A stretch of DNA of 64,000 bases from an uncultured Candidatus Peregrinibacteria bacterium (GCA_937858825.1 CALMAI010000002.1:2759-66758), one strand, 5' to 3'; counted from the first letter of the stretch, positions 32,498-43,368 are shown. The notes: generated by a model from the letters alone, not told the origin. Made by a program: numbers and translations.

Positions 32498-33013
32498 ATG
32501 CGAAAAAAGCCTGTTAAAGTTGTGGTGAACGATCTAATGCAGACCGGTTATTCGTATTTGCTGGTGGAGCCGGAGGGGAAGAATTTTGATCCAGAATTTA
32601 AACCGGATTTAACGCCCAAGCAGATGCTGGAGATGGGGATTTTTGGCGGAAAGTACATGACGGATTGCAAGAAGGAGTTTCCGGCTTCGTGGTTTGCGAA
32701 GGCGAAGCTCTGCCATGAAAAGCATGACGCGAAGCTGAACTTTTTTGGGGTGAACGCGTCGAAGCCTTTGAGTTATTGGGTGAAGAAGGGATGGATTTAT
32801 CCGGAGGATCCGCGCGGATGGTTTCAATGGTATTGCCGTTATTACATGGGGAGGCGTATTCCAGAGGAGGATGCGCGGCAGATTAAGCGGTGGAAAGCCA
32901 TGACGCGTCACATTGCGCAGGTGCGGAAAAATTGCACGGCGGGGGATTTGTTGTGCCGGCCGCGCCAACGGCAGGCGCTTTTGCACTGGGCGTATGATAG
33001 CCGGAAATTTTAG
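32498..33013 (+). CDS. conserved-looking hypothetical protein (Trp/Arg-rich)
   Basis: 171 aa with distinctive blocks GIFGGKYMTDC, DPRGWFQWYCRYYMGRR and DARQIKRWKA. I cannot name a family from memory. Confidence 0.5.
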   Translation: MRKKPVKVVVNDLMQTGYSYLLVEPEGKNFDPEFKPDLTPKQMLEMGIFGGKYMTDCKKEFPASWFAKAKLCHEKHDAKLNFFGVNASKPLSYWVKKGWIYPEDPRGWFQWYCRYYMGRRIPEEDARQIKRWKAMTRHIAQVRKNCTAGDLLCRPRQRQALLHWAYDSRKF

Positions 33014-33327
33014 GAGTTGACCTTCTTTTTTTTGTCGACTTTGAGGATTTTTACTTCTAGTTGAAGCTTTTTGCCAAGTTTTTCTTTGGCGATTTCAACG
33101 TCGTAGTGATTTTGGAGGTTGAGCCAAAAATCGGTGCTCATATTGAAGTATCGACCCAGACGTAGAGCTGTGTCTGCGCTCATGGCGCGTTTGCCATGAA
33201 CGATTTCGTTTATGCGCCTCGGTGGGACGCCAATGTCTTTGGCTACACGGTACTGGCTGAGGTTGAGGGGTTTCATGAACTCTTCGTTGAGGATTTCGCC
33301 GGGGTGGGGGATGTGAAGCTTTTTCAA
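33010..33327 (-). CDS. higA: HigA-family antitoxin (XRE HTH)
   Basis: HPGEILNEEFMKPLNLSQYRVAKDIGVPPRRINEIVHGKRAMSADTALRLGRYFNMSTDFWLNLQNHYD is canonical HigA. TTG start. Confidence 0.85.
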   Translation of the reverse strand: MKKLHIPHPGEILNEEFMKPLNLSQYRVAKDIGVPPRRINEIVHGKRAMSADTALRLGRYFNMSTDFWLNLQNHYDVEIAKEKLGKKLQLEVKILKVDKKKKVNS

Positions 33328-33497
33328 TGGTAGTCGGTTATTTCTAAATTATAGACATGATTGTTGATCCAGTGGAAGCAGTCTGATAGTTTCATTGCAG
33401 AATCTATCATTGAAAGTTTATTGGTTATTCGTTGATGTAATTCTTGGGGAACTTTTTTTGAAGGTTTTGCTTCTTTATCTTTAAAAGATTTAATCAT
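33324..33497 (-). pseudogene. HigB-family toxin remnant (57 aa, internal deletion)
   Basis: My own translation, since the ORF is below the 60-aa cutoff of the track: MIKSFKDKEAKPSKKVPQELHQRITNKLSMIDSAMKLSDCFHWINNHVYNLEITDYH*. Its N-terminus (MIKSFK) and C-terminus (VYxLxxxDYH) match HigB ends, but about 35 aa of the core are missing. The stop TGA overlaps the higA TTG start. Confidence 0.6.
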
Positions 33498-33513
33498 TAA
33501 TGCGTCGCGTTAA

Positions 33514-33528
33514 TAACGTACCACGTTA
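33514..33528. promoter_or_regulatory. candidate higBA operator palindrome
   Basis: TAACGT-acc-ACGTTA has perfect 6-bp inverted arms and lies 17 nt upstream of the higB-remnant ATG. Confidence 0.3.
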
Positions 33529-33605
33529 ATAGGGTGATGGTCAATGTATACTTAAAATACCTTCTTAGGGTGAAGGATTCTTAATGTCTGGATAAATTCT
33601 GGTCA

Positions 33606-34382
33606 CTATTTGAGGTTCTCCAACTCCTGCAAATAGAGGCTCAACTCTTCGGTGTCTTCTGGGCTGAGTGGAGGTGGTTCTGGCGCGTCCAGGCAGGCTT
33701 TAATGTCCTGGAGGGTTTGTTCAATCCAGCTGTCGTCGCCATCGTATTCCAGGATGGTCATGTTAAAGGAGAGGACGCCGGTTTGGCCGGTTGGGTCTGC
33801 GGAGTCCATGAATCCGGGTTTGGATTTATCGCCGTTGGCGTAGACAAAGTAGGCTTTTGAGTTCACGGTGAAGCCGTTTTGGCGGAGCAGCCATTGGTAG
33901 ATTTCGGCCTGGCGTTTGTAGGCCTGTTTGTATTCGTCGTCCAGGCTGGGTTCTTTTTCGGTGGAGGTGGATTTGTAGTCGACCACGTGGATCTCTTGTT
34001 TGGGGTTGATCCAGATGTCATCCACGGCTCCGGTAATGAGCAGGTTGGTGGCTTTGTGGTGCGTCTGGACTCCCTCAAAGTTGGCGCGCCAGGTTTCCAG
34101 ATCTTCGTGCTGAAAGGGGATCGCGTTGATCTTGTATTTGGTCATGAGTGGGTGCGGCTTCTGTTGGTTTCGGTATTGATCGAACTCGTTTTTCAGCAGT
34201 TGGTCCACGGCCGAATTGAGCGTGAAGGCCGGCATGCCGGGCAGACTGATGCCACGGCGGCGATCCAGATAGAAGAGATGCGGCGACTTGAGGAAGAGCT
34301 CAATCTTCGACCGGCTGAGCTTGTATGGATGGTCCGGGTCGGCGTTGAGGGTGGGGTCGTAGATGTTGCGGGATCGGGGCAT
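33606..34382 (-). CDS. PD-(D/E)XK nuclease (Cas4/RecB-like fold, no Fe-S cysteines)
   Basis: SRSKIELFLKSPHLFYL (N-terminal helix), GAVDDI (motif II Asp), VVDYKS (motif III D-x-K), QAEIYQWL (QxxxY). Last gene of the R-M operon. Visibly GC-rich. Confidence 0.65.
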   Translation of the reverse strand: MPRSRNIYDPTLNADPDHPYKLSRSKIELFLKSPHLFYLDRRRGISLPGMPAFTLNSAVDQLLKNEFDQYRNQQKPHPLMTKYKINAIPFQHEDLETWRANFEGVQTHHKATNLLITGAVDDIWINPKQEIHVVDYKSTSTEKEPSLDDEYKQAYKRQAEIYQWLLRQNGFTVNSKAYFVYANGDKSKPGFMDSADPTGQTGVLSFNMTILEYDGDDSWIEQTLQDIKACLDAPEPPPLSPEDTEELSLYLQELENLK

Positions 34383-34387
34383 GGGGG

Positions 34388-34762
34388 TTATTTAATTGTT
34401 CCTTCTTTTTTTGCTTTTGACATCAGTTTATTGAGGTCTTTTGCAGGGATTATTGGGCAAAATTGTCCCCAGACCCATTTCCCTTTTCTATTTCCATTTT
34501 TTCCAATCATGAAATATCCAATTCTATATACAATTTTTCCTGTTTTGTTACCGTCTTGATGAGTAATTTCCCCTTTAGTCGATGAGAGTCGTAGTCTTTC
34601 AAGAAGGAGGACCTTTTCCTTAATGGTTGATTCGGGCATGAATGTCCATGCTTCACGGGTATATATGTGCCAACCTTTTCTTCCAATGTCTTTCATTCGT
34701 ATTGGTTTGGCCTTCTTAAATTGCTCGTTTTTTCTCTGGATGAATTGTTGGAGTGTTTCCAT
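34388..34762 (-). CDS. hypothetical protein (orphan, 124 aa)
   Basis: Lys/Gly-rich ORF between hsdR (25-nt gap) and the PD-(D/E)XK gene (5-nt gap). No motif recognised. Confidence 0.5.
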   Translation of the reverse strand: METLQQFIQRKNEQFKKAKPIRMKDIGRKGWHIYTREAWTFMPESTIKEKVLLLERLRLSSTKGEITHQDGNKTGKIVYRIGYFMIGKNGNRKGKWVWGQFCPIIPAKDLNKLMSKAKKEGTIK

Positions 34763-34787
34763 ATATTGTATGATTCTCTGTATTTTT

Positions 34788-37106
34788 TTAAGTTGTGGTT
34801 TTGTGCTTTGAGTAGAGTGTTTTTTGAAAATTGAAGAATACAGCTCTAATTTTTGTTACATCACCGAGTTTATCTTGTGCATCTGCAATGGCGTGATATT
34901 TGAGATTTAGGAGTTTTGGTAATTTTTCCTCATCGAGTTCATCAACACCAGCTTCAATATATTGAGATAGTACAAATTCGATGAATTCTATTTCGTTGTC
35001 ATTCAATCCTTTGTATATGTTACTTCTTGATTCATCTACACGTTCGCTGCGTGTAATAGGCTGACTTGCAAAGGCAACGTAGGCTAATACATCAAATAAA
35101 TCGCTTTCGTCGGCATTTATAAGATGTTGGAGACTTTCAAGTTCTTCCTTTCCATAGCCAAGTTCGGAAATTCGTTGTAAAAATGCTTTTCGAGTTGTTG
35201 GATTTGACCATATTTGTCGTAGTTCAGCTTCATTTTTGAAAAATGTGGGAAGGTCGCCGTAAAGGCTTTGGAGGAACTCTTCTGCGGAGATAGGTTTTCC
35301 ATCGGCGCTCCAGAAGGAAGTCGAAATCATGTGTTGTATTTCTCGTTCTTTTCCGTCTCTCAGTTTAATTTTGATTTTTTTCGGTCTTTTTTTGGTTTCT
35401 TCCTCAGGTTTTAATTCTTTTTCTACCTTTTCGTGCGCTTCTTTTACTTTTCTTGGCTCTTTTTCTATTGTTTCATTGAGTGGTTCACCATCCCATTCAG
35501 GATCGTTAAAATGATGATATGCATTAACGAAGTCTAAGATGGTAAAGAACTCCTTTCCGTCAAAGAGTCGTGTTCCACGTCCAACGATCTGTTTGAACTC
35601 AATCATGGAGTTTACAGGTCGCATGAGAACTATATAGCGAATGTTTCGGGCATCAACTCCGGTTGATAGTTTTTGTGATGTGGTAAGGATTGTTGGAATG
35701 TTTTTCTCATTATCCTGAAAATCTCGTAAATACTGTTCTCCTCGGGCTCCATCGTTGGCGGTTACTCTTACACAGTAGTATGGATTTTTACTTTTGGCAT
35801 ACTGATTTACTAAGTCGCGAACAGCTGCTGCGTGCTCTTGTGTAGCGCAAAAGATAATGGCTTTTTCGTCCTCATTCATTTCATTTAAAGCAATTTGGAC
35901 TCTCTTTGCTTCACGCTCTTTGATCTCAATAATTCGATTGAAATCCTCTTCCTGATAGATTTTTCCTTCTTCTACTTCACCTTCTATGAGTTGGTCATCG
36001 GAAGTGTACATATATTCGTCGAGGGTGGTTTGGATTCTTCTGACCTTAAATGGTGTTAAGAATCCATCATTGATACCTGTTTTGAGCGAGTAGGTGTATA
36101 CGGGTTCTCCAAAGTATCGATATGTGTCTACGTTGTCTTTTCGCTTTGGTGTTGCGGTTAATCCGAGTTGAACAGCAGGGGAAAAGTGTTCCAAGATCGC
36201 ACGCCAGTTGGATTCGTCGTTGGCTCCTCCTCGGTGACATTCGTCAATAATGATGAAATCGAAGAAGTCAGGATTGTATTCACCAAAATATGGGCTTCCA
36301 TTCGGTCCGCTCATAAAGGTTTGGAAGATGGTGAAGAAGATGCTGCCGTTTGTTGGGACCGAACCCTTCTTGCGAATGTCGAGGGGCTTGATTCTCACCA
36401 TGGCATCTTCTGGGAAGGGAGAAAAGTTATTGAAGGCTTGATCTGCCAAGATGTTACGATCAGCAAGGAAGAGTATGCGTGGTTGGCGGCCGCCGTCTCG
36501 ATTTAAGTTCCATCGTGAGTGAAAGAGTTTCCAGGCGATTTGAAAAGCTATAAATGTTTTTCCTGTACCGGTTGCCAGGGTTAAGAGTATTCGCTCTTTT
36601 CCGTCTGCGATGGCATTGAGTGCTTTGTTGACGGCAATTTCTTGATAGTAGCGTGGTTTTTTGGTTCCGCTTTTGTCTTCAAAGTGTATAGCATCAAATT
36701 TTGCTCGCCATTCGTTCGATTTAGCATTGATTCTATTCCAGAGTTCCTCTGGGGTAGGGAAGCGATCAACAAGACCTTCATCTCCATTCATTGCTATTTC
36801 ATAAATCTCTTTGCCATTGGTGCTATAGGTGTATTCAAGGTGGAGCTTGTCAGCATATGCTTTAGCTTGGGCTACTCCTTCAGAGACTTCAAGTTCATCG
36901 CTTTTTGCTTCAATAACGGCAATTTTTTGATTTTTGTAGACTAAAACATAGTCAGCGATTTCTGGCTTTGCTCGAAGACCACCGGTTTGTATTTTTCCAT
37001 CGGTAATGCGGTATTCGCGGAGTATTTTTGAATCTTCAACTTCACCCCAGCCAGCTTCTTTTAGTTTTGGGTCTATATACTCAGCTCTGGTTTCTGCTTC
37101 GTTCAT
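34788..37106 (-). CDS. hsdR: Type I restriction enzyme, R subunit
   Basis: MNEAETRAEYIDPKLKEAGW (HsdR N-terminal nuclease region), helicase motif I LATGTGKT, motif II IIIDECHRG, motif VI QIVGRGTR. Confidence 0.92.
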   Translation of the reverse strand: MNEAETRAEYIDPKLKEAGWGEVEDSKILREYRITDGKIQTGGLRAKPEIADYVLVYKNQKIAVIEAKSDELEVSEGVAQAKAYADKLHLEYTYSTNGKEIYEIAMNGDEGLVDRFPTPEELWNRINAKSNEWRAKFDAIHFEDKSGTKKPRYYQEIAVNKALNAIADGKERILLTLATGTGKTFIAFQIAWKLFHSRWNLNRDGGRQPRILFLADRNILADQAFNNFSPFPEDAMVRIKPLDIRKKGSVPTNGSIFFTIFQTFMSGPNGSPYFGEYNPDFFDFIIIDECHRGGANDESNWRAILEHFSPAVQLGLTATPKRKDNVDTYRYFGEPVYTYSLKTGINDGFLTPFKVRRIQTTLDEYMYTSDDQLIEGEVEEGKIYQEEDFNRIIEIKEREAKRVQIALNEMNEDEKAIIFCATQEHAAAVRDLVNQYAKSKNPYYCVRVTANDGARGEQYLRDFQDNEKNIPTILTTSQKLSTGVDARNIRYIVLMRPVNSMIEFKQIVGRGTRLFDGKEFFTILDFVNAYHHFNDPEWDGEPLNETIEKEPRKVKEAHEKVEKELKPEEETKKRPKKIKIKLRDGKEREIQHMISTSFWSADGKPISAEEFLQSLYGDLPTFFKNEAELRQIWSNPTTRKAFLQRISELGYGKEELESLQHLINADESDLFDVLAYVAFASQPITRSERVDESRSNIYKGLNDNEIEFIEFVLSQYIEAGVDELDEEKLPKLLNLKYHAIADAQDKLGDVTKIRAVFFNFQKTLYSKHKTTT

Positions 37107-37145
37107 GGGAATGGGGCTTATAGTATGTATAGCTTACGAGTAAAT

Positions 37146-37982
37146 TTATGCCGTTTCTTTTTTTATAATCATCCTTATTGAGGCATGATACGTAGCTAAA
37201 TAGAAATGGAATATCCAGGAATACCAGATATTTAAATCATAATTGCTTTTTTGCTTCGGATCATGATGTCTTATAGCAAAATTATTTGCAATATTAAACA
37301 AAGCTGCTTCATCTTTTTTGTTTAATATACTATCAAGTTTTTGGGATTTCTTGAGCCATTCAAATACATCCGCGAGTTCTTGAATAGCTTTTTTTCTCTC
37401 TTCTAAAGAAGATTTTCTGTTTTTCCATATTGATAAGGCATTGACTACTTTTCTATCAACATTTACTGCATCATAAGGAACAATGTCTGCATTCAAAATA
37501 AACTGCAGTCCATGCTCACCAAGAGATATGATTTCCCCCTCCTCTGTTAGTTCAAACCCATTTTTATAATCGAGTAAGAAAAAATTGGCATATTCTCTAA
37601 ATTCATTACGCCCTGTTAGTTCATCATAAGAGTCATAATCTTGATAATTCCACCCTGTTGGAGTTATCATGTCAACTAACTCACCAGGCTTAGAAACGTG
37701 ATCAAATAGGAACTCAATACATGAAAAGATATTTTCTTCATTTATATCTTGGGGATTCCATTCATCTATAGGAAATGGGGAGAAATTGAGTTTAATTGCT
37801 GCTATTCTCATTATGCTTTCTGGCACCCATTTTGTGTCTGATTCGTGGGAATTTATTTTCGCTTTTTCTTTTAAAAAGTCTTTTTCCCGGAATAAAAAAT
37901 AAAGATTTTGCAGTTTTTCATAGAGCTGATCTATTGAGATTTTCTGTTGATTATTACGAGATGCGAAATATTTTCTAGTCAT
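37146..37982 (-). CDS. hypothetical protein (orphan, 278 aa) nested between hsdS and hsdR
   Basis: Uninterrupted AT-rich ORF with a 9-nt gap from hsdS and a 39-nt gap to hsdR. No P-loop, no Rx4-6H HEPN motif, no TM segment, no family recognised. Confidence 0.6.
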   Translation of the reverse strand: MTRKYFASRNNQQKISIDQLYEKLQNLYFLFREKDFLKEKAKINSHESDTKWVPESIMRIAAIKLNFSPFPIDEWNPQDINEENIFSCIEFLFDHVSKPGELVDMITPTGWNYQDYDSYDELTGRNEFREYANFFLLDYKNGFELTEEGEIISLGEHGLQFILNADIVPYDAVNVDRKVVNALSIWKNRKSSLEERKKAIQELADVFEWLKKSQKLDSILNKKDEAALFNIANNFAIRHHDPKQKSNYDLNIWYSWIFHFYLATYHASIRMIIKKETA

Positions 37983-37991
37983 CGCTTTGTG

Positions 37992-39161
37992 TTAGAGTTT
38001 TCCAGTAAATGCTTGATGCAGAATTGATTGTTTGAGTTCTTCCAGGTTGTTGAGTTTTTGTTGGTATAGAGATTCAATTTTTTTTGTATTTGTTGATAAT
38101 TTATCAAATGATTCAACAATTGATTTTTGTTCAGAAATTTCAGGCAGATGTATTTCAATAGAATTTAGCGAAGCCTGGTTAAGTTTAGGCTGAGCCATAC
38201 CACTAATATAAGATACTAGATTAATTGAGTTTAAGTAATATTCTACAAATTTCTGTGTTATTTTCTTTTTAAATTTTAGTACATGTGCATGGTTATTAAC
38301 CCAAGTTTTTCCACTGATTGAGAAGGCAATGGGATAAGTTCTTGCTAACAGGTTTGCGCCATCTTCTGAAATAAGTAATAAATCTTCGTCAAAAATGTAA
38401 TCATTAACATAATCAACAATGCCAGAAGCACCATAGTATGGAAAATCTCCATTAATTCTATCTTTTTTAGTTATAGGTATCCTTTTCCTGTCTAAATTTT
38501 CTGCAATTTCCCCAAGTTGTTGCTTGGCCCAATCGTTGTCAGGATTGTGAATCCTATCCTTCAACCAAGATTCAAAAAGCTCTTTCGAATTTTTTAAATT
38601 TTTTTTAGTGTTTTCATTGGCTTTTTCTATTTTTTCAAAAAGTTCATCAAGAAGTGCGACGAGGCGTTTTTGCTCGAGGAGGGGTGGAAAGGATATGGTG
38701 AAATTTTTAATAAATTCTTTTGATACCCTTTTATGACCAGCCGCACCCCTCATATTTTTGGATCCTTCCTCTCGAAATTTTTTAGTAGATAAAAAATAGA
38801 AAAGATATTCTGGTAATAAATCATCATTTGTCCTAAAAACAACATATTCACTTGATCCAAAACCAATCCCATTCTTTAAATTTTTTGCAATCCCGAGTTT
38901 TCCATTCTCAAAACATGGTGTAATTTTCGCCATTAGTACATCATCATCTGCAAAATATGTATAACTTTCCACGACTTCTTTGAGTTTTTTTGTTTGGCTT
39001 AAGTTAAGATTCTTATTCAATATTCCGAGATCCTCCATTGGCACAAATGAAACAACATCGTTGTCATTAAGCTTCTTTCGCGCCTCACTTTTTGGTGGTT
39101 TAACAATGCATATCTCTCCCAATTTTTTAATCTGCCAATTATTCATGATTAAATAATTCAT
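37992..39161 (-). CDS. hsdS: Type I restriction enzyme, S (specificity) subunit
   Basis: Two target-recognition domains separated by the conserved helices LLEQKRLVALLDELFEKIE and EQKSIVESFDKLSTNTKKIESLYQQKLNNLEELKQSILHQAFTG. Confidence 0.88.
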   Translation of the reverse strand: MNYLIMNNWQIKKLGEICIVKPPKSEARKKLNDNDVVSFVPMEDLGILNKNLNLSQTKKLKEVVESYTYFADDDVLMAKITPCFENGKLGIAKNLKNGIGFGSSEYVVFRTNDDLLPEYLFYFLSTKKFREEGSKNMRGAAGHKRVSKEFIKNFTISFPPLLEQKRLVALLDELFEKIEKANENTKKNLKNSKELFESWLKDRIHNPDNDWAKQQLGEIAENLDRKRIPITKKDRINGDFPYYGASGIVDYVNDYIFDEDLLLISEDGANLLARTYPIAFSISGKTWVNNHAHVLKFKKKITQKFVEYYLNSINLVSYISGMAQPKLNQASLNSIEIHLPEISEQKSIVESFDKLSTNTKKIESLYQQKLNNLEELKQSILHQAFTGKL

Positions 39162-40911
39162 TTATTTTTTTAAAAAGTGGTTCAAAATTTTCAAAATCTG
39201 CTTTATTCAGTTTAAAAAGTTTTTTCCACAGTGTCCCTTTAGCATTTATTTTCACAATTTTTTTGCCACCGCTTGGTTCATATTCTCCACCATGGGCTTT
39301 TATTGAGGTAAGCACGGAATCTTCAAAAAGGTGTTCCAAGGTTAAGTAACTGTGAGTATAAGTACTATCAGCATAATCATTTCGTGAAGGGGGAACTGGA
39401 ATTAATAAGCTATAAAAACAGTTATAGTTTTTTCGTTTCCTGAAAAGACAATCATTTTTATTTCCTTCAATTTCTTTCCATCTTATTTTATTTAAACCAT
39501 TAAAATTATTGAAACCATCATCAAAATCAAAAATCCCAATTACTCCGGAATTTTTATATTCTTCCATGTTTGCTAAGTCTAAAAATTTTTGCAATTCATC
39601 TCTGCCGCCTTTCCCATATATATGGAAATGAGATTTTTCTTGAAAGAGCTTTTCGAAATTATCTTTATTACAAGCAATTTCATTTATCTTAAGCCAAGCA
39701 ATTTTATATATCTCTTTTTTAGTGTCTTCTATAAAAACCGTGTGCTTTTGTTTTTTTAACTCATGCCCAAGGTGCTCACTCAATTTAGAGTACATTTCTA
39801 AAATTCCGACTTCTTTTTCAAGCTCATCAGTATCATTTTCAAATTCCGGCCCTTTTATTGTTCTTTGTTCCCAGTTAATCAATCCAATTTGAGAAACATT
39901 CTTTTCAATTTTTACTCTGTAAGAGCTTATATTTTCTCCTTGTAGAGAGATGAAAGGGAAGGCGTGCGAAGTAATGAAAATCTGTTTTTTTTCTGCATAC
40001 TTAACAAAGTCTTGTGCAAGCTCAAAACAGCGCAACGGTTCATATGAGTTTTCAGGTTCTTCAAATCCCCAAATTATCTTCTTACGTGAATTCCTAGAAA
40101 TTTCATTAAGAATATCGGGGATAAAGCGTGCCTGAATACCATCACCCCTATCAAATAAGGATACTTCATTGTCAGTTGTGACTCCAAGTGTCCTAAAGAA
40201 ATCTAAGAGTGTATCAGGTATGCTAAATCGTGCTTGGATACTTGTGTTACTTCTAAACTCTTCAAAAAGTTTGATGGTTTGATCTTTCAAAAGATCGTTG
40301 AATTTTGAAGAGTGCGTTTTAAAAACATTTTGTTCTTTTTTGTCTTCTTTTTCGAACAAGTGCTTTTGCAGTTTCTGAAAAAGAAAATTAAAAAACTGTC
40401 TGTCTTTTACTGCTGGAATATATTCATACTGAATATTATTGAGAAACATAGTTAGTCTGCCTTCTTGCACATGTTGGTATTTGTGTTTATGCTTCTTTAC
40501 ATCTGAATTGCGTTTGGGATGCAAACCATTTTTGTCCCAAGTTTTTTCGACAAAAAAACGTTCTGGTAGCACACCTTTTTTATCGTTGTAAAAATGTATT
40601 TTGATTTTGACCCAAAGATCTTTTTGGCGAACATCTGTTTTTGGAGCTGCTTTTCTTTTGCTTTGCGCTTTAGCGTCACTTCTGGCTTTAAGTACTTTTG
40701 ATAAATCTCTGTTTATATCGAACTTAATACCAGGTGTAACTTCGTCATTAAAAAAAAGATTCAGGGCTCTTAATATATTTGATTTACCAGAATCATTTGC
40801 ACCGGAAAAAATATTCAAATCTCTTAAATCAATAACTTCAACTTTTGGTTGTTTTACGCCACCATCAAAGGATCTGAAATGTTTTATAACAATTTTTTCA
40901 ATAATCTTCAC
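39139..40911 (-). CDS. ABC-type (AAA_15/21-like) ATPase with putative Toprim/DUF4435-like C-terminal domain (OLD-family or fused-PARIS-like)
   Basis: Walker A GANDSGKSN, signature-like DRGDGIQ, Walker B KIIWGFEEPE, H-loop ITSHA. The C-terminal ~190 aa carry an E...DxD pattern (VFIEDTKKEIY ... IGIFDFDDG). The start overlaps the hsdM stop by 4 nt, and the stop overlaps the hsdS start. Confidence 0.75.
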   Translation of the reverse strand: MKIIEKIVIKHFRSFDGGVKQPKVEVIDLRDLNIFSGANDSGKSNILRALNLFFNDEVTPGIKFDINRDLSKVLKARSDAKAQSKRKAAPKTDVRQKDLWVKIKIHFYNDKKGVLPERFFVEKTWDKNGLHPKRNSDVKKHKHKYQHVQEGRLTMFLNNIQYEYIPAVKDRQFFNFLFQKLQKHLFEKEDKKEQNVFKTHSSKFNDLLKDQTIKLFEEFRSNTSIQARFSIPDTLLDFFRTLGVTTDNEVSLFDRGDGIQARFIPDILNEISRNSRKKIIWGFEEPENSYEPLRCFELAQDFVKYAEKKQIFITSHAFPFISLQGENISSYRVKIEKNVSQIGLINWEQRTIKGPEFENDTDELEKEVGILEMYSKLSEHLGHELKKQKHTVFIEDTKKEIYKIAWLKINEIACNKDNFEKLFQEKSHFHIYGKGGRDELQKFLDLANMEEYKNSGVIGIFDFDDGFNNFNGLNKIRWKEIEGNKNDCLFRKRKNYNCFYSLLIPVPPSRNDYADSTYTHSYLTLEHLFEDSVLTSIKAHGGEYEPSGGKKIVKINAKGTLWKKLFKLNKADFENFEPLFKKINELFNHE

Positions 40912-42371
40912 AATTTTTGTCTTATAGAGAGTAAAATTTTATCGGTCTTTTTATCTAGCTTCTCAATCTCTTTCAAAATCTCTTTTGGCTCTCGTAAAGT
41001 CACCTCGTCGTTGCTATTTGGGTTTCGTACTGATAGATCAAAGGTTTTTGTGTTGAGGTCGGCGACGTTTACAGTCCATGAATTCTCTGAAGCAGATTTT
41101 GTTTTGTGGAGTTCTACAAATTCGGCTAAATCTTTTTCGTTTAAAGGATTGGTTTTGCCGAGGTTGCGGCCTGGGTTGAGTTGGTAGTACCATATTTTTT
41201 TTGTTGGTTCACCTTTGGTAAAAAATAAAACGATGGTTTTTACCCCTGCACCGCTAAAGGCACCTCCAGGAAGGTCAAGTATTGTGTGGAGGTTGCACGT
41301 TTCAAGGAGATATTTTCGAAGTGAGACGTAGGCATCACCGGTAGAGCCATTAGAAAGGAATGTATTTTTTATAACAATGCCAGCTTTTCCGCCTGCTTTA
41401 AGATGTTTAATAAAGTGCTGTAAGAATAAAAGAGCGGTTTCTCCTGTTTTAATAGGGAAATTTTGTTGAACCTCTTTGCGTTCTTTGCCTCCAAATGGTG
41501 GATTGGCTAGAATAACGTCGAATCGATCTTTTTCTTGAATGTCTGCTAAATTTTCGGCAAGAGTGTTGGTGTGAATGATGTTTGGTGCTTCAATTCCGTG
41601 GAGAATCATGTTCATGATGCCAATGATATAGGCAAGTGATTTCTTTTCTTTACCGTAAAAGGTTTTTTTCTGGAGGGTCTCGATATCTTTGGTTGAGAGT
41701 TCTTTGCTTTTCATCAAGTATTCAAAGGCTTCGACTAAGAATCCTGCGGAGCCAACAGCGCCGTCATAAATAGTATCCCCGATTTTAGGAGCAACAACTT
41801 TTACAATGGTTTTAATGAGAGGACGGGGTGTATAGTATTCACCTCCATTGCGTCCGGCATTGCCCATGTTTTTAATTTTTGCTTCGTAGAGATGGGAAAG
41901 TTCATGTTTCTCCTTTTGGGACTTGAATCTGAGCTCATCAACGATGTTTAAAACTTCGCGGAGGTTATATCCGCTTTGAATTCTGTTCTTGAGTTGGCTA
42001 AATATTTCTCCAATCTTGTATTCGATGGTGTCGGCACTCTCTGCAGATTGTTTGAATTTTTTGAGATAGGGGAAAAGGTCATTATTGACGAAATCGTGAA
42101 GATCATCTCCCGTCATTGCTTTGTTGTGGTCTATTTTGTCGTCTGATGTTTTTGGGACAGCCCAGTTGTGCCATCGAAATTTAGTTGCAATGATATGGGT
42201 GTAGGTTCCTTTCCCTGCCAGAGCTGCTTCGGTTTTTCTTTCTTGTTCTAGATCTTCGAGGTACTTTAGGAAGAGGATCCATGAAGTTTGTTCTACATAG
42301 TCAAGTTCGCTACTACAACCAGCATCTTTCCAGAGGACATTATCAATGTTTTTGAAAGCTTGTTCGAACAT
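40908..42371 (-). CDS. hsdM: Type I restriction enzyme, M (N6-adenine methyltransferase) subunit
   Basis: HsdM N-terminal domain (LWKDAGCSSELDYVEQTSWILFLKYL), SAM motif I DGAVGSAGFL, catalytic NPPFGG. Confidence 0.93.
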   Translation of the reverse strand: MFEQAFKNIDNVLWKDAGCSSELDYVEQTSWILFLKYLEDLEQERKTEAALAGKGTYTHIIATKFRWHNWAVPKTSDDKIDHNKAMTGDDLHDFVNNDLFPYLKKFKQSAESADTIEYKIGEIFSQLKNRIQSGYNLREVLNIVDELRFKSQKEKHELSHLYEAKIKNMGNAGRNGGEYYTPRPLIKTIVKVVAPKIGDTIYDGAVGSAGFLVEAFEYLMKSKELSTKDIETLQKKTFYGKEKKSLAYIIGIMNMILHGIEAPNIIHTNTLAENLADIQEKDRFDVILANPPFGGKERKEVQQNFPIKTGETALLFLQHFIKHLKAGGKAGIVIKNTFLSNGSTGDAYVSLRKYLLETCNLHTILDLPGGAFSGAGVKTIVLFFTKGEPTKKIWYYQLNPGRNLGKTNPLNEKDLAEFVELHKTKSASENSWTVNVADLNTKTFDLSVRNPNSNDEVTLREPKEILKEIEKLDKKTDKILLSIRQKL

Positions 42372-42535
42372 GGAATTTTCTTAAGTTGCGAGATAAACAG
42401 GATTTGAAGTCTGATCTACTTTACTCCAAAAAGACTCTTTCTACAAAAATCTGCCTTGGCCGACATAGCTTTTCACTCTTTTATCATCCACTGTGCTACT
42501 CTTTCTATTGAACCGTTGTTTCATCCATCCCATCC

Positions 42536-42781
42536 ATGCAAAAATTCTATGTCTACCTGGTCCGGTGCAGTGATGACACGTTGTATTGTGGGTACAGTAC
42601 GAATGTGGAGGCTCGGGAAAGGGCGCACAATGAGGGGAAGGGGGCGAAGTATACGCGGGCGCGGTTGCCGGTAAGGGTGGTGTATAGTGAGGAGTTTGCG
42701 ACTCGGTCGGAGGCGCAGCAGCGGGAATACGCGATTAAGAAGCTGACGCGGAAAGAGAAGGAGGAGTTGATTGAGGGGTGA
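42536..42781 (+). CDS. GIY-YIG nuclease-superfamily protein (UPF0213-like)
   Basis: FYVYLVRCSDDTLYCGYSTNVEARERAHNEGKGAKYTRARLPVRVVYSEEF is the GIY-(x10)-YxG-R-E-N core. Confidence 0.8.
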   Translation: MQKFYVYLVRCSDDTLYCGYSTNVEARERAHNEGKGAKYTRARLPVRVVYSEEFATRSEAQQREYAIKKLTRKEKEELIEG

Positions 42782-42918
42782 AGTGGATGTAGTAGGAATT
42801 TATTTGTCGTTCAGGTTTTGATTATCTCTTTTTGCTACTTTGTTGGTAGTCCTTTACTAATTCCTATATTATTACTATAATATTAATGTATTTATAATTA
42901 ATTTTATAGTTATTCACT

Positions 42919-43128
42919 ATGACTCTTTTGCAAGTAAACATTGAAGATGATCTGAAGGAGGCAATCCAGAAAAAGGCGAAGGCCTATGGGGTTTCTGTGA
43001 GTGCGATTGTTAAGATTGTCTTGGCTCGATCATTTATGATGGATGGAAGGCCAGGCAATGTTTTTAATGCTGATCGTGATAATAAAGGTAAAGGGTTACC
43101 TGTTGATGATTTAATAGATGCCCTGTAA
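42919..43128 (+). CDS. ribbon-helix-helix antitoxin (RelB/CopG-like)
   Basis: 69 aa. LQVNIEDDLKEAIQKKAKAYGVSVSAIVKIVL fits an RHH fold. The stop abuts the start of a RelE/ParE toxin (TAAATG). Confidence 0.6.
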   Translation: MTLLQVNIEDDLKEAIQKKAKAYGVSVSAIVKIVLARSFMMDGRPGNVFNADRDNKGKGLPVDDLIDAL

Positions 43129-43368
43129 ATGCCTGATAAGATAACGAAGTTTGTTAACGCTCTTGATGCCAAGACGCGGAAGCGATTGAAGGAACGTTTA
43201 AAGAGCTTGAGAGAGAACCCTTTGGCTCGATCTCAAGATGTGAAGAAGCTGAAGGGATGGGGAAAGAATACTTACCGTTTGCGTATGGGAGACATTCGGA
43301 TTATTTATCGATTGAATGACAGCAAGGTGGCGATCATCGATATTGATTTTCGAGGAAATGTTTATTAA
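43129..43368 (+). CDS. RelE/ParE-family toxin
   Basis: 79 aa. ...LKGWGKNTYRLRMGDIRIIYRLNDSKVAIIDIDFRGNVY is the RelE/StbE C-terminal pattern. Confidence 0.8.
   Translation: MPDKITKFVNALDAKTRKRLKERLKSLRENPLARSQDVKKLKGWGKNTYRLRMGDIRIIYRLNDSKVAIIDIDFRGNVY

Follow-up and report, generated by a model that had tools for sequence, protein, structure and literature searches.

A 64,000-nucleotide stretch of DNA from an uncultured Candidatus Peregrinibacteria bacterium (GCA_937858825.1, CALMAI010000002.1:2759-66758), hereafter the window, contains seven tightly spaced minus-strand open reading frames (ORFs) at 33606-42371. In the direction of transcription, these are hsdM, a gene for a fused ATPase/Toprim-like protein, hsdS, ORF278, hsdR, ORF124, and a gene for a PD-(D/E)XK nuclease. 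We consider it probable that the locus is a horizontally acquired type IB restriction-modification (R-M) operon, which acts as the genetic carrier of two embedded, autonomous genes of a defence type: the ATPase/Toprim fusion between hsdM and hsdS, and ORF278 between hsdS and hsdR. A preliminary description of this DNA, made from the sequence without database searches, had already proposed a type I R-M operon with nested non-canonical genes. Domain calls with hidden Markov models (HMMs) support that proposal, and an ORF check of the window recovered all seven reading frames at the coordinates first given for them.

A complete type IB system in a compact, predicted transcription unit

Judged by their predicted products, the three canonical genes are intact, retain their catalytic motifs, and make up a complete R-M system of the EcoAI family (type IB). 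HsdM (40908-42371; 487 aa), the methyltransferase subunit, matched HsdM_N and N6_Mtase (5.2e-63) in Pfam and, over its full length, MTase_I in PADLOC (1.7e-161), and it carries an NPPF motif at residue 290. The specificity subunit, HsdS (37992-39161; 389 aa, or 384 aa if translation begins with the ATG at 39146), matched Methylase_S in two stretches (3.9e-39), indicating two target-recognition domains, as well as PADLOC Specificity_I (1.3e-159). HsdR (34788-37106; 772 aa), the restriction and translocase subunit, matched the NCBIfam equivalog for EcoAI/FtnUII, NF046051, at 4.9e-254 and 845 bits against a cut-off of 550 (residues 1-766/772), and it contains ResIII, SWI2_SNF2, Helicase_C, and EcoEI_R_C domains with the motifs GTGKT at 180 and DECH at 288. 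The sequence features of the type IB family are thus present: a full-length match to the HsdR model, N6_Mtase with NPPF in HsdM, and an HsdS with two target-recognition domains. Counterparts of hsdM in three other loci (L083, L093, and L105; L numbers are our labels for comparison loci) are 76-77% identical to it, and relative to the closest loci hsdS is only about 30% identical, versus 72-77% for hsdM and hsdR. The type IB operon is apparently functional, in which case HsdM2S would methylate host DNA and HsdR2M2S would restrict unmodified DNA.

The junctions between the genes are tight. The TGA stop codon of hsdM and the GTG start codon of the ATPase gene share four nucleotides (GTGA, 40908-40911), and the end of the ATPase gene overlaps hsdS by 23 nt (39139-39161) when the first ATG is taken as the hsdS start. 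Public gene calls on identical DNA begin hsdS five codons later, which yields the 384-aa product and reduces the overlap to 8 nt; with this adjustment, the junctions in the preliminary description hold. The remaining genes are separated by gaps of 9 nt (hsdS/ORF278), 39 nt (ORF278/hsdR), 25 nt (hsdR/ORF124), and 5 nt (ORF124/PD-(D/E)XK). A pattern scan of 32900-43000 found no terminator-like hairpin on the minus strand inside the unit, in agreement with the preliminary description, and the sole such site in the scanned region is a hairpin with a T-run at 33576..33560, approximately 30 nt past the last stop codon, which is the probable 3' end of the unit (33560-33576, minus strand). At the other end, 164 nt separate hsdM from a divergent GIY-YIG gene, and this intergenic stretch (42372-42535) is the presumed promoter region, though no sigma-70-like match was found there on the minus strand. 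Promoter-like matches in the scan numbered 15 versus 23.6 in shuffled sequence, so they are uninformative. Taken together, the overlaps of 4 and 8-23 nt, the gaps of 9-39 nt, and the single hairpin at the end fit a single predicted transcript.

A predicted ABC-ATPase/Toprim fusion between hsdM and hsdS

The first embedded gene (39139-40911, minus strand) encodes a 590-aa protein. On the basis of HMM matches, motifs, and an AlphaFold 2 (AF2) model, we predict that it joins an ABC ATPase to a Toprim domain in the OLD/PARIS manner, although membership of either family is not demonstrable. Residues 1 to approximately 330 form an ABC ATPase that matches AAA_15, AAA_21, AAA_23, and SMC_N in Pfam, with a Walker A motif at 37, a signature at 256, a Walker B motif at 279, and an H-loop at 313, and this N-terminal part has the features expected of an OLD-type protein. 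The best PADLOC match was to AriA of PARIS (1.8e-13, 49 bits; residues 4-319), with a second AriA model at 7.6e-11. The next scores, HEC-01A and GajA, were close to those of AriA. We rejected Gabija, as no GajB-like gene is adjacent and the GajA matches are mostly confined to the first ~60 residues.

The Toprim-like domain occupies approximately residues 385-590. In an alignment with 35 homologues, E395, D462, D464, P507, and E526 are invariant, and the Toprim E...DxD...E residues are complete in the window protein. An AF2 model of the C-terminal part, with a pLDDT score (the predicted value of the local distance difference test) of 86, places the Glu after strand 1 and the DxD after strand 3 in a beta-alpha-beta arrangement. 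The isolated C-terminal domain matched the PADLOC models for retron RT-Toprim_I-C at 2e-6, and other members of the family matched DUF4435, AriAB, OLD-like_TOPRIM, ATPase-Toprim_I-B, and HEC-04. Such matches are uneven: Pfam OLD-like_TOPRIM was found in one of 17 family members, at 0.0036, and DUF4435 or AriAB in only two of 17. The putative Toprim assignment is therefore supported by motifs, modelled topology, and weak HMM links. The ATPase/Toprim-like label that the protein had first received was invisible to Pfam searches with the whole protein and found support once the C-terminal domain was analysed alone.

The family is large, with more than 2,100 homologues. The plasmid searches made in this analysis returned only a few distant matches, annotated as "hypothetical" or "AAA family ATPase." Two relatives, P0139 and P0143 (L178, 7001-8743), have a similar ATPase part and a different, DUF4435/AriAB-type C-terminus with a VEGKWD motif. 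Judging from their sequences, this looks like a swap of the Toprim domain within the family.

The ATPase family inside and outside type I operons

The surroundings of the ATPase family show a clear preference. Five of the 17 well-flanked, full-length homologues lie within type I operons, and the rest are mostly found among other R-M, Mrr, Vsr, or SLFN genes. In the loci of ORF278, which served as a control, adjacency to an hsd gene was seen in 1 of 73 (Fisher p ~7e-4). The hsd hosts of the ATPase family span at least three hsd families. The arrangement closest to that of the window is in L175 (66% identity), where hsdM, the ATPase gene, and hsdS are joined by equally overlapping junctions and are followed by two different cargo genes and an hsdR of the EcoEI_R_C type. 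L083 (67%) has the order hsdM(76%)-Mrr-ATPase-hsdS(31%)-Fic-hsdR(72%), and L099 has a methyltransferase, the ATPase, and an S gene. The gene order thus recurs in part: hsdM-ATPase-hsdS was found again in L175 and, with an additional Mrr gene, in L083, whereas ORF278, ORF124, and the PD-(D/E)XK gene are unlinked to hsd genes elsewhere.

The position within the operon also varies. The ATPase gene sits between hsdM and hsdS in the window, and between hsdS and hsdR in L093, L097, and L131. The order in L093 is hsdM-hsdS-HSDR_N protein-ATPase(40%)-RhuM-hsdR. Both L097 and L131 read hsdM-hsdS-ATPase-SLFN/HATPase_c_4-hsdR, and their HsdR proteins are not of the EcoAI type, being HindI-type (T1RH-like_C) in L097 and T1R_D3-type in L131. 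The slot between hsdS and hsdR accordingly holds different cargo from locus to locus, including Fic (L083), RhuM (L093), a 186-aa protein and an HTH protein (L175), and SLFN/HATPase_c_4 (L097 and L131). These last two operons are unrelated to each other, yet in both a gene with SLFN_AlbA_2 and HATPase_c_4 domains (L097, 4296-5654; L131, 5654-7117) comes after the ATPase homologue, and the two genes may together form an embedded cassette that recurs.

Other relatives stand apart from type I systems. L176 (64%) places the ATPase relative next to a type II-like methyltransferase and an integrase, and in L177 (63%) it lies amid housekeeping genes; neither locus has a type I system nearby. In L178 (56%), the relative adjoins an Mrr gene. 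Because relatives that are 63-64% identical occur alone, the ATPase would need no Hsd partners, and from its gene neighbourhoods we describe the family as drawn to type I operons without depending on them.

Relation to known systems and a possible guard role

Embedding of this kind has been described before. Type I R-M, BREX, DISARM, and Hma operons frequently enclose additional genes on the same strand, most commonly ABC-ATPase modules paired with Toprim, NERD, or PIN components (Payne et al. 2024, 10.1101/2024.01.29.577857). The same study showed that HEC-04, an ATPase-Toprim fusion, protects against phage, and proposed that the host system, when phages deploy anti-defence proteins, can be backed up by the ABC-ATPase systems embedded in it (10.1101/2024.01.29.577857). 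TgvAB, in the type I operon of Vibrio cholerae VPI-2, is a tested embedded case (PMC11411939), and the rlo genes in the hsd loci of Campylobacter jejuni are an older one (cited in PMC11411939). The term "RM guardian systems" has been applied to PrrC and PARIS in a 2025 review (PMC12707154). The preliminary description had suggested an architecture not previously described; since both the embedding and the guardian rationale are published (10.1101/2024.01.29.577857; PMC12707154), that suggestion does not stand, and the locus is a fresh example of a described arrangement rather than a new type of system. It shares with the published embedded systems the same-strand genes between hsd genes, the ABC-ATPase module, the variable cargo between hsdS and hsdR, and a second gene, ORF278, whose family matches a PDC model derived by that approach. 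It differs in that its ATPase/Toprim family has no dedicated strong model in PADLOC 2.0 (AriA, at 49 bits, is the best), that its host is a bacterium of the candidate phyla radiation (CPR), and that two slots are filled at once.

Among individual systems, the window protein resembles class 1 OLD and HEC-04 in that one polypeptide combines an ABC ATPase at the N-terminus with a putative Toprim domain, bearing E and DxD ligands, at the C-terminus, and some relatives of the window protein stand alone as those systems do. Unlike OLD, it belongs to a family with a single OLD-like_TOPRIM match among 17 members, and its Foldseek similarity to the OLD C-terminal region is not significant. PARIS consists of AriA and AriB, a DUF4435 Toprim protein, which are occasionally fused; it is activated by the anti-restriction protein Ocr and cleaves tRNA (PMC10802454). 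The likeness lies in the joining of an ABC ATPase to a putative Toprim-type nuclease domain, the AriA match, and the two family members with a DUF4435/AriAB-type C-terminus. The C-terminus of the window protein, by contrast, gave no DUF4435 match and is nearer to RT-Toprim_I-C. The prr locus, where PrrC lies between hsdS and hsdR of EcoprrI, likewise nests an ABC-ATPase effector gene in a type I operon, but the window effector domain is Toprim-like and not the anticodon-nuclease domain of PrrC. PrrC is kept latent by the R-M complex and is nearly always embedded, whereas the window family also occurs solo. Assignment to the PrrC type was rejected because the family is not confined to type I operons (5/17 embedded; 63-64% relatives solo). 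MADS was rejected as well, as MAD2, MAD3, and MAD5 scored 77.8, 15.1, and 30.4 bits against cut-offs of 720, 420, and 400.

These precedents raise a different reading, in which the ATPase/Toprim protein, and perhaps ORF278, depends on the Hsd complex as PrrC does or senses anti-restriction proteins as PARIS does. The operon would then be a layered unit of "restriction plus anti-anti-restriction." The AriA match, the AriAB and DUF4435 matches of family members, the translational coupling of the ATPase gene between hsdM and hsdS in both the window and L175, the enrichment in type I operons that belong to several hsd families, and the fact that such a role has already been proposed for embedded ABC-ATPase systems all speak for it. 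Several results argue in the other direction. The 63-64% identical relatives in L176 and L177 persist with no type I system nearby, which counts against a PrrC-like dependence, and about two thirds of the adequately flanked ATPase loci have no hsd genes, whereas PrrC is almost exclusively embedded (10.1101/2024.01.29.577857). The variable operon position also fits poorly, hsd linkage is absent elsewhere for ORF278, ORF124, and the PD-(D/E)XK gene, and no similarity at the sequence level to the solved AriA or AriB chains was found. We therefore regard this reading as unlikely overall; by analogy, a guard role is plausible for the ATPase alone, and it is weakened by the solo relatives. Also doubtful is the more specific idea that the ATPase/Toprim protein is an uncharacterised OLD/PARIS branch preferentially recruited to type I operons, which would sense anti-restriction proteins and fire when the restriction enzyme is attacked, and which, with ORF278, would form a three-layer unit in a CPR host with few other defences.

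On the model of OLD, PARIS, and HEC-04, the carrier reading that we favour would make the ATPase/Toprim protein an ATP-dependent sensor that stays inactive until a phage signal arrives; that signal may be an anti-restriction protein. Once triggered, it would cut nucleic acid, either tRNA or DNA, and thereby abort the infection. It would act as a self-contained module rather than forming a subunit of the Hsd complex, and the embedding would chiefly couple the inheritance and the expression of the defence layers.

ORF278, a conserved family without a known domain

The second embedded gene, ORF278 (37146-37982, minus strand), may be a second autonomous, single-gene defence candidate. It had been taken for a complete orphan, which proved incorrect: at least 685 homologues were found, at ~57-60% identity, in Chloroflexota, Acidobacteriota, Verrucomicrobiota, Bacillota, Spirochaetota, and other phyla. 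There was no match in Pfam or NCBIfam. The full-length protein matched phrog_20667 at 2e-36, and despite this match no relatives were found in IMG/VR viral contigs. All 20 aligned members of the family matched PDC-S32 in PADLOC (best 2.3e-11). PDC models stand for candidate systems whose genes were picked out for lying within BREX, DISARM, or type I operons (10.1101/2024.01.29.577857). Based on these profile matches, we describe ORF278 as a distant relative of PDC-S32 rather than a demonstrated member.

Many acidic, His, and aromatic residues are invariant in the family, which suggests that the product is an enzyme. An AF2 model from a 20-sequence alignment was poor (pLDDT 64), a Foldseek search with it against the PDB gave nothing below E 0.5, and the fold was left unassigned. 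The relatives in L061, L075, and L077 and the plasmid matches H7 and H8 lack the first ~75 residues and match residues ~71-278, so the conserved core would be the C-terminal two thirds. For the genomic context of ORF278, we fetched 80 species loci, of which 73 were analysable, and no neighbour was conserved across these 73. The flanks contained mixed housekeeping genes and a few genes for reverse transcriptase, Mrr, DUF4145, and integrase. Adjacency of hsdS and ORF278 recurred only in L037, where a Fic gene is next.

The boundary of the probably acquired island

The GC content at third codon positions (GC3) separates the seven genes into two groups. The values are 0.39 for hsdM, 0.25 for the ATPase gene, 0.25 for hsdS, 0.27 for ORF278, 0.36 for hsdR, and 0.33 for ORF124, in contrast to 0.74 for the PD-(D/E)XK nuclease gene (GC 0.55) and 0.72 for the divergent GIY-YIG gene on the other flank. 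For comparison, dnaK has a GC3 of 0.53 and the window as a whole is 45% GC; both flanks of the island are thus unusually high in GC3. From this contrast, the acquired island would run from hsdM to ORF124, with the ATPase gene, hsdS, and ORF278 as its lowest-GC core.

ORF124 (34388-34762, minus strand), a small conserved protein within the low-GC island, had also been called a complete orphan, yet it has 161 homologues, mostly in Patescibacteria. It matched no HMM in any library searched. We sampled 12 loci in seven distinct contexts, and the neighbours of ORF124 homologues varied: one follows Abi_C (L172), another follows Fic (L174), and others are near PIN, NYN, RelE, and ParE genes. No ORF124 homologue adjoined hsdR or a PD-(D/E)XK homologue in the 12 loci, and the idea that ORF124 and the PD-(D/E)XK gene form a conserved pair was rejected, since the two did not co-occur in this sample. 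ORF124 may be a small accessory gene that moves through toxin and abortive-infection (Abi) neighbourhoods.

The last gene of the unit (33606-34382, minus strand) encodes a stand-alone RecB/Cas4-like PD-(D/E)XK nuclease of 258 aa. It matched PDDEXK_1 (1.9e-10, 41.5 bits, cut-off 22), carries a D135-Y-K motif, and comes from a large family whose members are RecB-like nucleases of ~250 aa that stand alone, with 1,411 cluster representatives at E<=1e-3. The protein has a single Cys, which means that the Fe-S cluster of Cas4 is absent; Cas4 itself was rejected, as TIGR00372 scored 23.7 bits against a cut-off of 65, four Cys are needed, and there are no cas genes nearby. No homologue lay beside relatives of hsd genes, the ATPase, ORF278, or ORF124 among the loci examined. 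The preliminary description had counted this gene as operon cargo; with a GC3 outside the range of the island and no link to hsd genes elsewhere, it is probably a co-oriented neighbour outside the acquired R-M island.

The composition of this gene bears on one more alternative, namely that the extra genes have no defence role and are selfish or accessory passengers (addiction-like, or cargo of mobile elements) or host genes, type I loci being tolerant of insertions. Their close spacing would then reflect compaction in a small CPR genome, and CPR genomes are indeed gene-dense. The PD-(D/E)XK gene resembles the GIY-YIG gene of the other flank and not the island, ORF124 is a small protein typical of Patescibacteria, and ORF278 homologues mostly lie among housekeeping genes with no conserved partner. 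Set against this, fusions of ABC ATPase and Toprim domains occur almost exclusively in defence systems (OLD, Gabija, PARIS, and HEC-04), and R-M, Mrr, Vsr, and SLFN genes prevail around members of the ATPase family. The model that the ORF278 family matches was derived from genes lying within defence operons, and relatives of ORF124 lie beside Abi_C, Fic, and toxin-antitoxin genes. We consider this alternative very unlikely.

Our preference for a type IB operon that carries autonomous defence-type genes is tempered by several observations, which weigh against it. For the ATPase/Toprim protein, a Pfam search with the C-terminal 300 residues returned no Toprim family, and DUF4435 was absent at E<=10. 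Foldseek gave no significant match for the C-terminal model: the best Toprim match was 6njv at probability 0.38, this OLD structure ranked 44 in the list, and the HsdR/RAD51-like matches in the same list (E ~0.1-0.9) were noise. Sequence and profile searches of the PDB yielded only coiled-coil noise and no match to solved AriA or AriB. The enrichment in type I operons (5/17 vs 1/73) may, together with the way in which translation of the ATPase gene is coupled to hsdM and hsdS, point to a genuine functional link and not to simple hitch-hiking. The window copy of ORF278 matches PDC-S32 weakly (4.6e-4) and in residues 214-264 only, and the commonness of housekeeping neighbours around its homologues leaves room for a role other than defence. 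Finally, a defence role for any of the four extra genes is putative.

Flanking modules and host

The island is flanked by the ~81-aa GIY-YIG gene (42536-42781, plus strand). In each of two Patescibacteria contigs, a similar small GIY-YIG gene (L163, 3224-3469; L168, 4066-4317) is found upstream of the ORF124 homologue, at a distance of two or three genes, and the orientation in the window differs from that in both. Beyond it, at 42919-43368 (plus strand), is a small two-gene module whose second product matches ParE_toxin (precomputed Pfam, seen in L081). On the other side, a HigA antitoxin gene (33010-33497, minus strand; TIGR02607, 6e-32) is preceded by a 57-aa ORF that starts with MIKSFKDKEAK and resembles a truncated toxin of the HigB/RelE type. 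Directly upstream in the HigA module is an imperfect palindrome, TTAACGTGGTACGTTATTAACG, which could be an operator. With a HigA module on one side and a ParE_toxin module on the other, the hsd island is bracketed by toxin-antitoxin modules, next to dnaK.

At >=90% identity, the DnaK of the window falls into one cluster with a protein that bears the label Candidatus Gracilibacteria, and the host is probably a CPR bacterium of the Gracilibacteria class that uses TGA as stop. Genetic code 25 is known from some Gracilibacteria. It was rejected here, as long ORFs end at TGA and none contains it internally, and the translations with table 11 stand.

Implications

The current picture of defence loci is unchanged by this locus, as the literature already covers both the nesting of defence genes within type I operons and the guardian idea. 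Two families nevertheless deserve interest: the ATPase/Toprim fusion resembling OLD and PARIS, which has more than 2,000 homologues and lacks a dedicated PADLOC 2.0 model, and the very conserved, 280-aa ORF278 family, for which we count at least 685 homologues and recognise no domain. The phage defences of the candidate phyla radiation are poorly studied. The locus would be a compact, natural case of layered immunity in a CPR bacterium, provided that its embedded genes are active.

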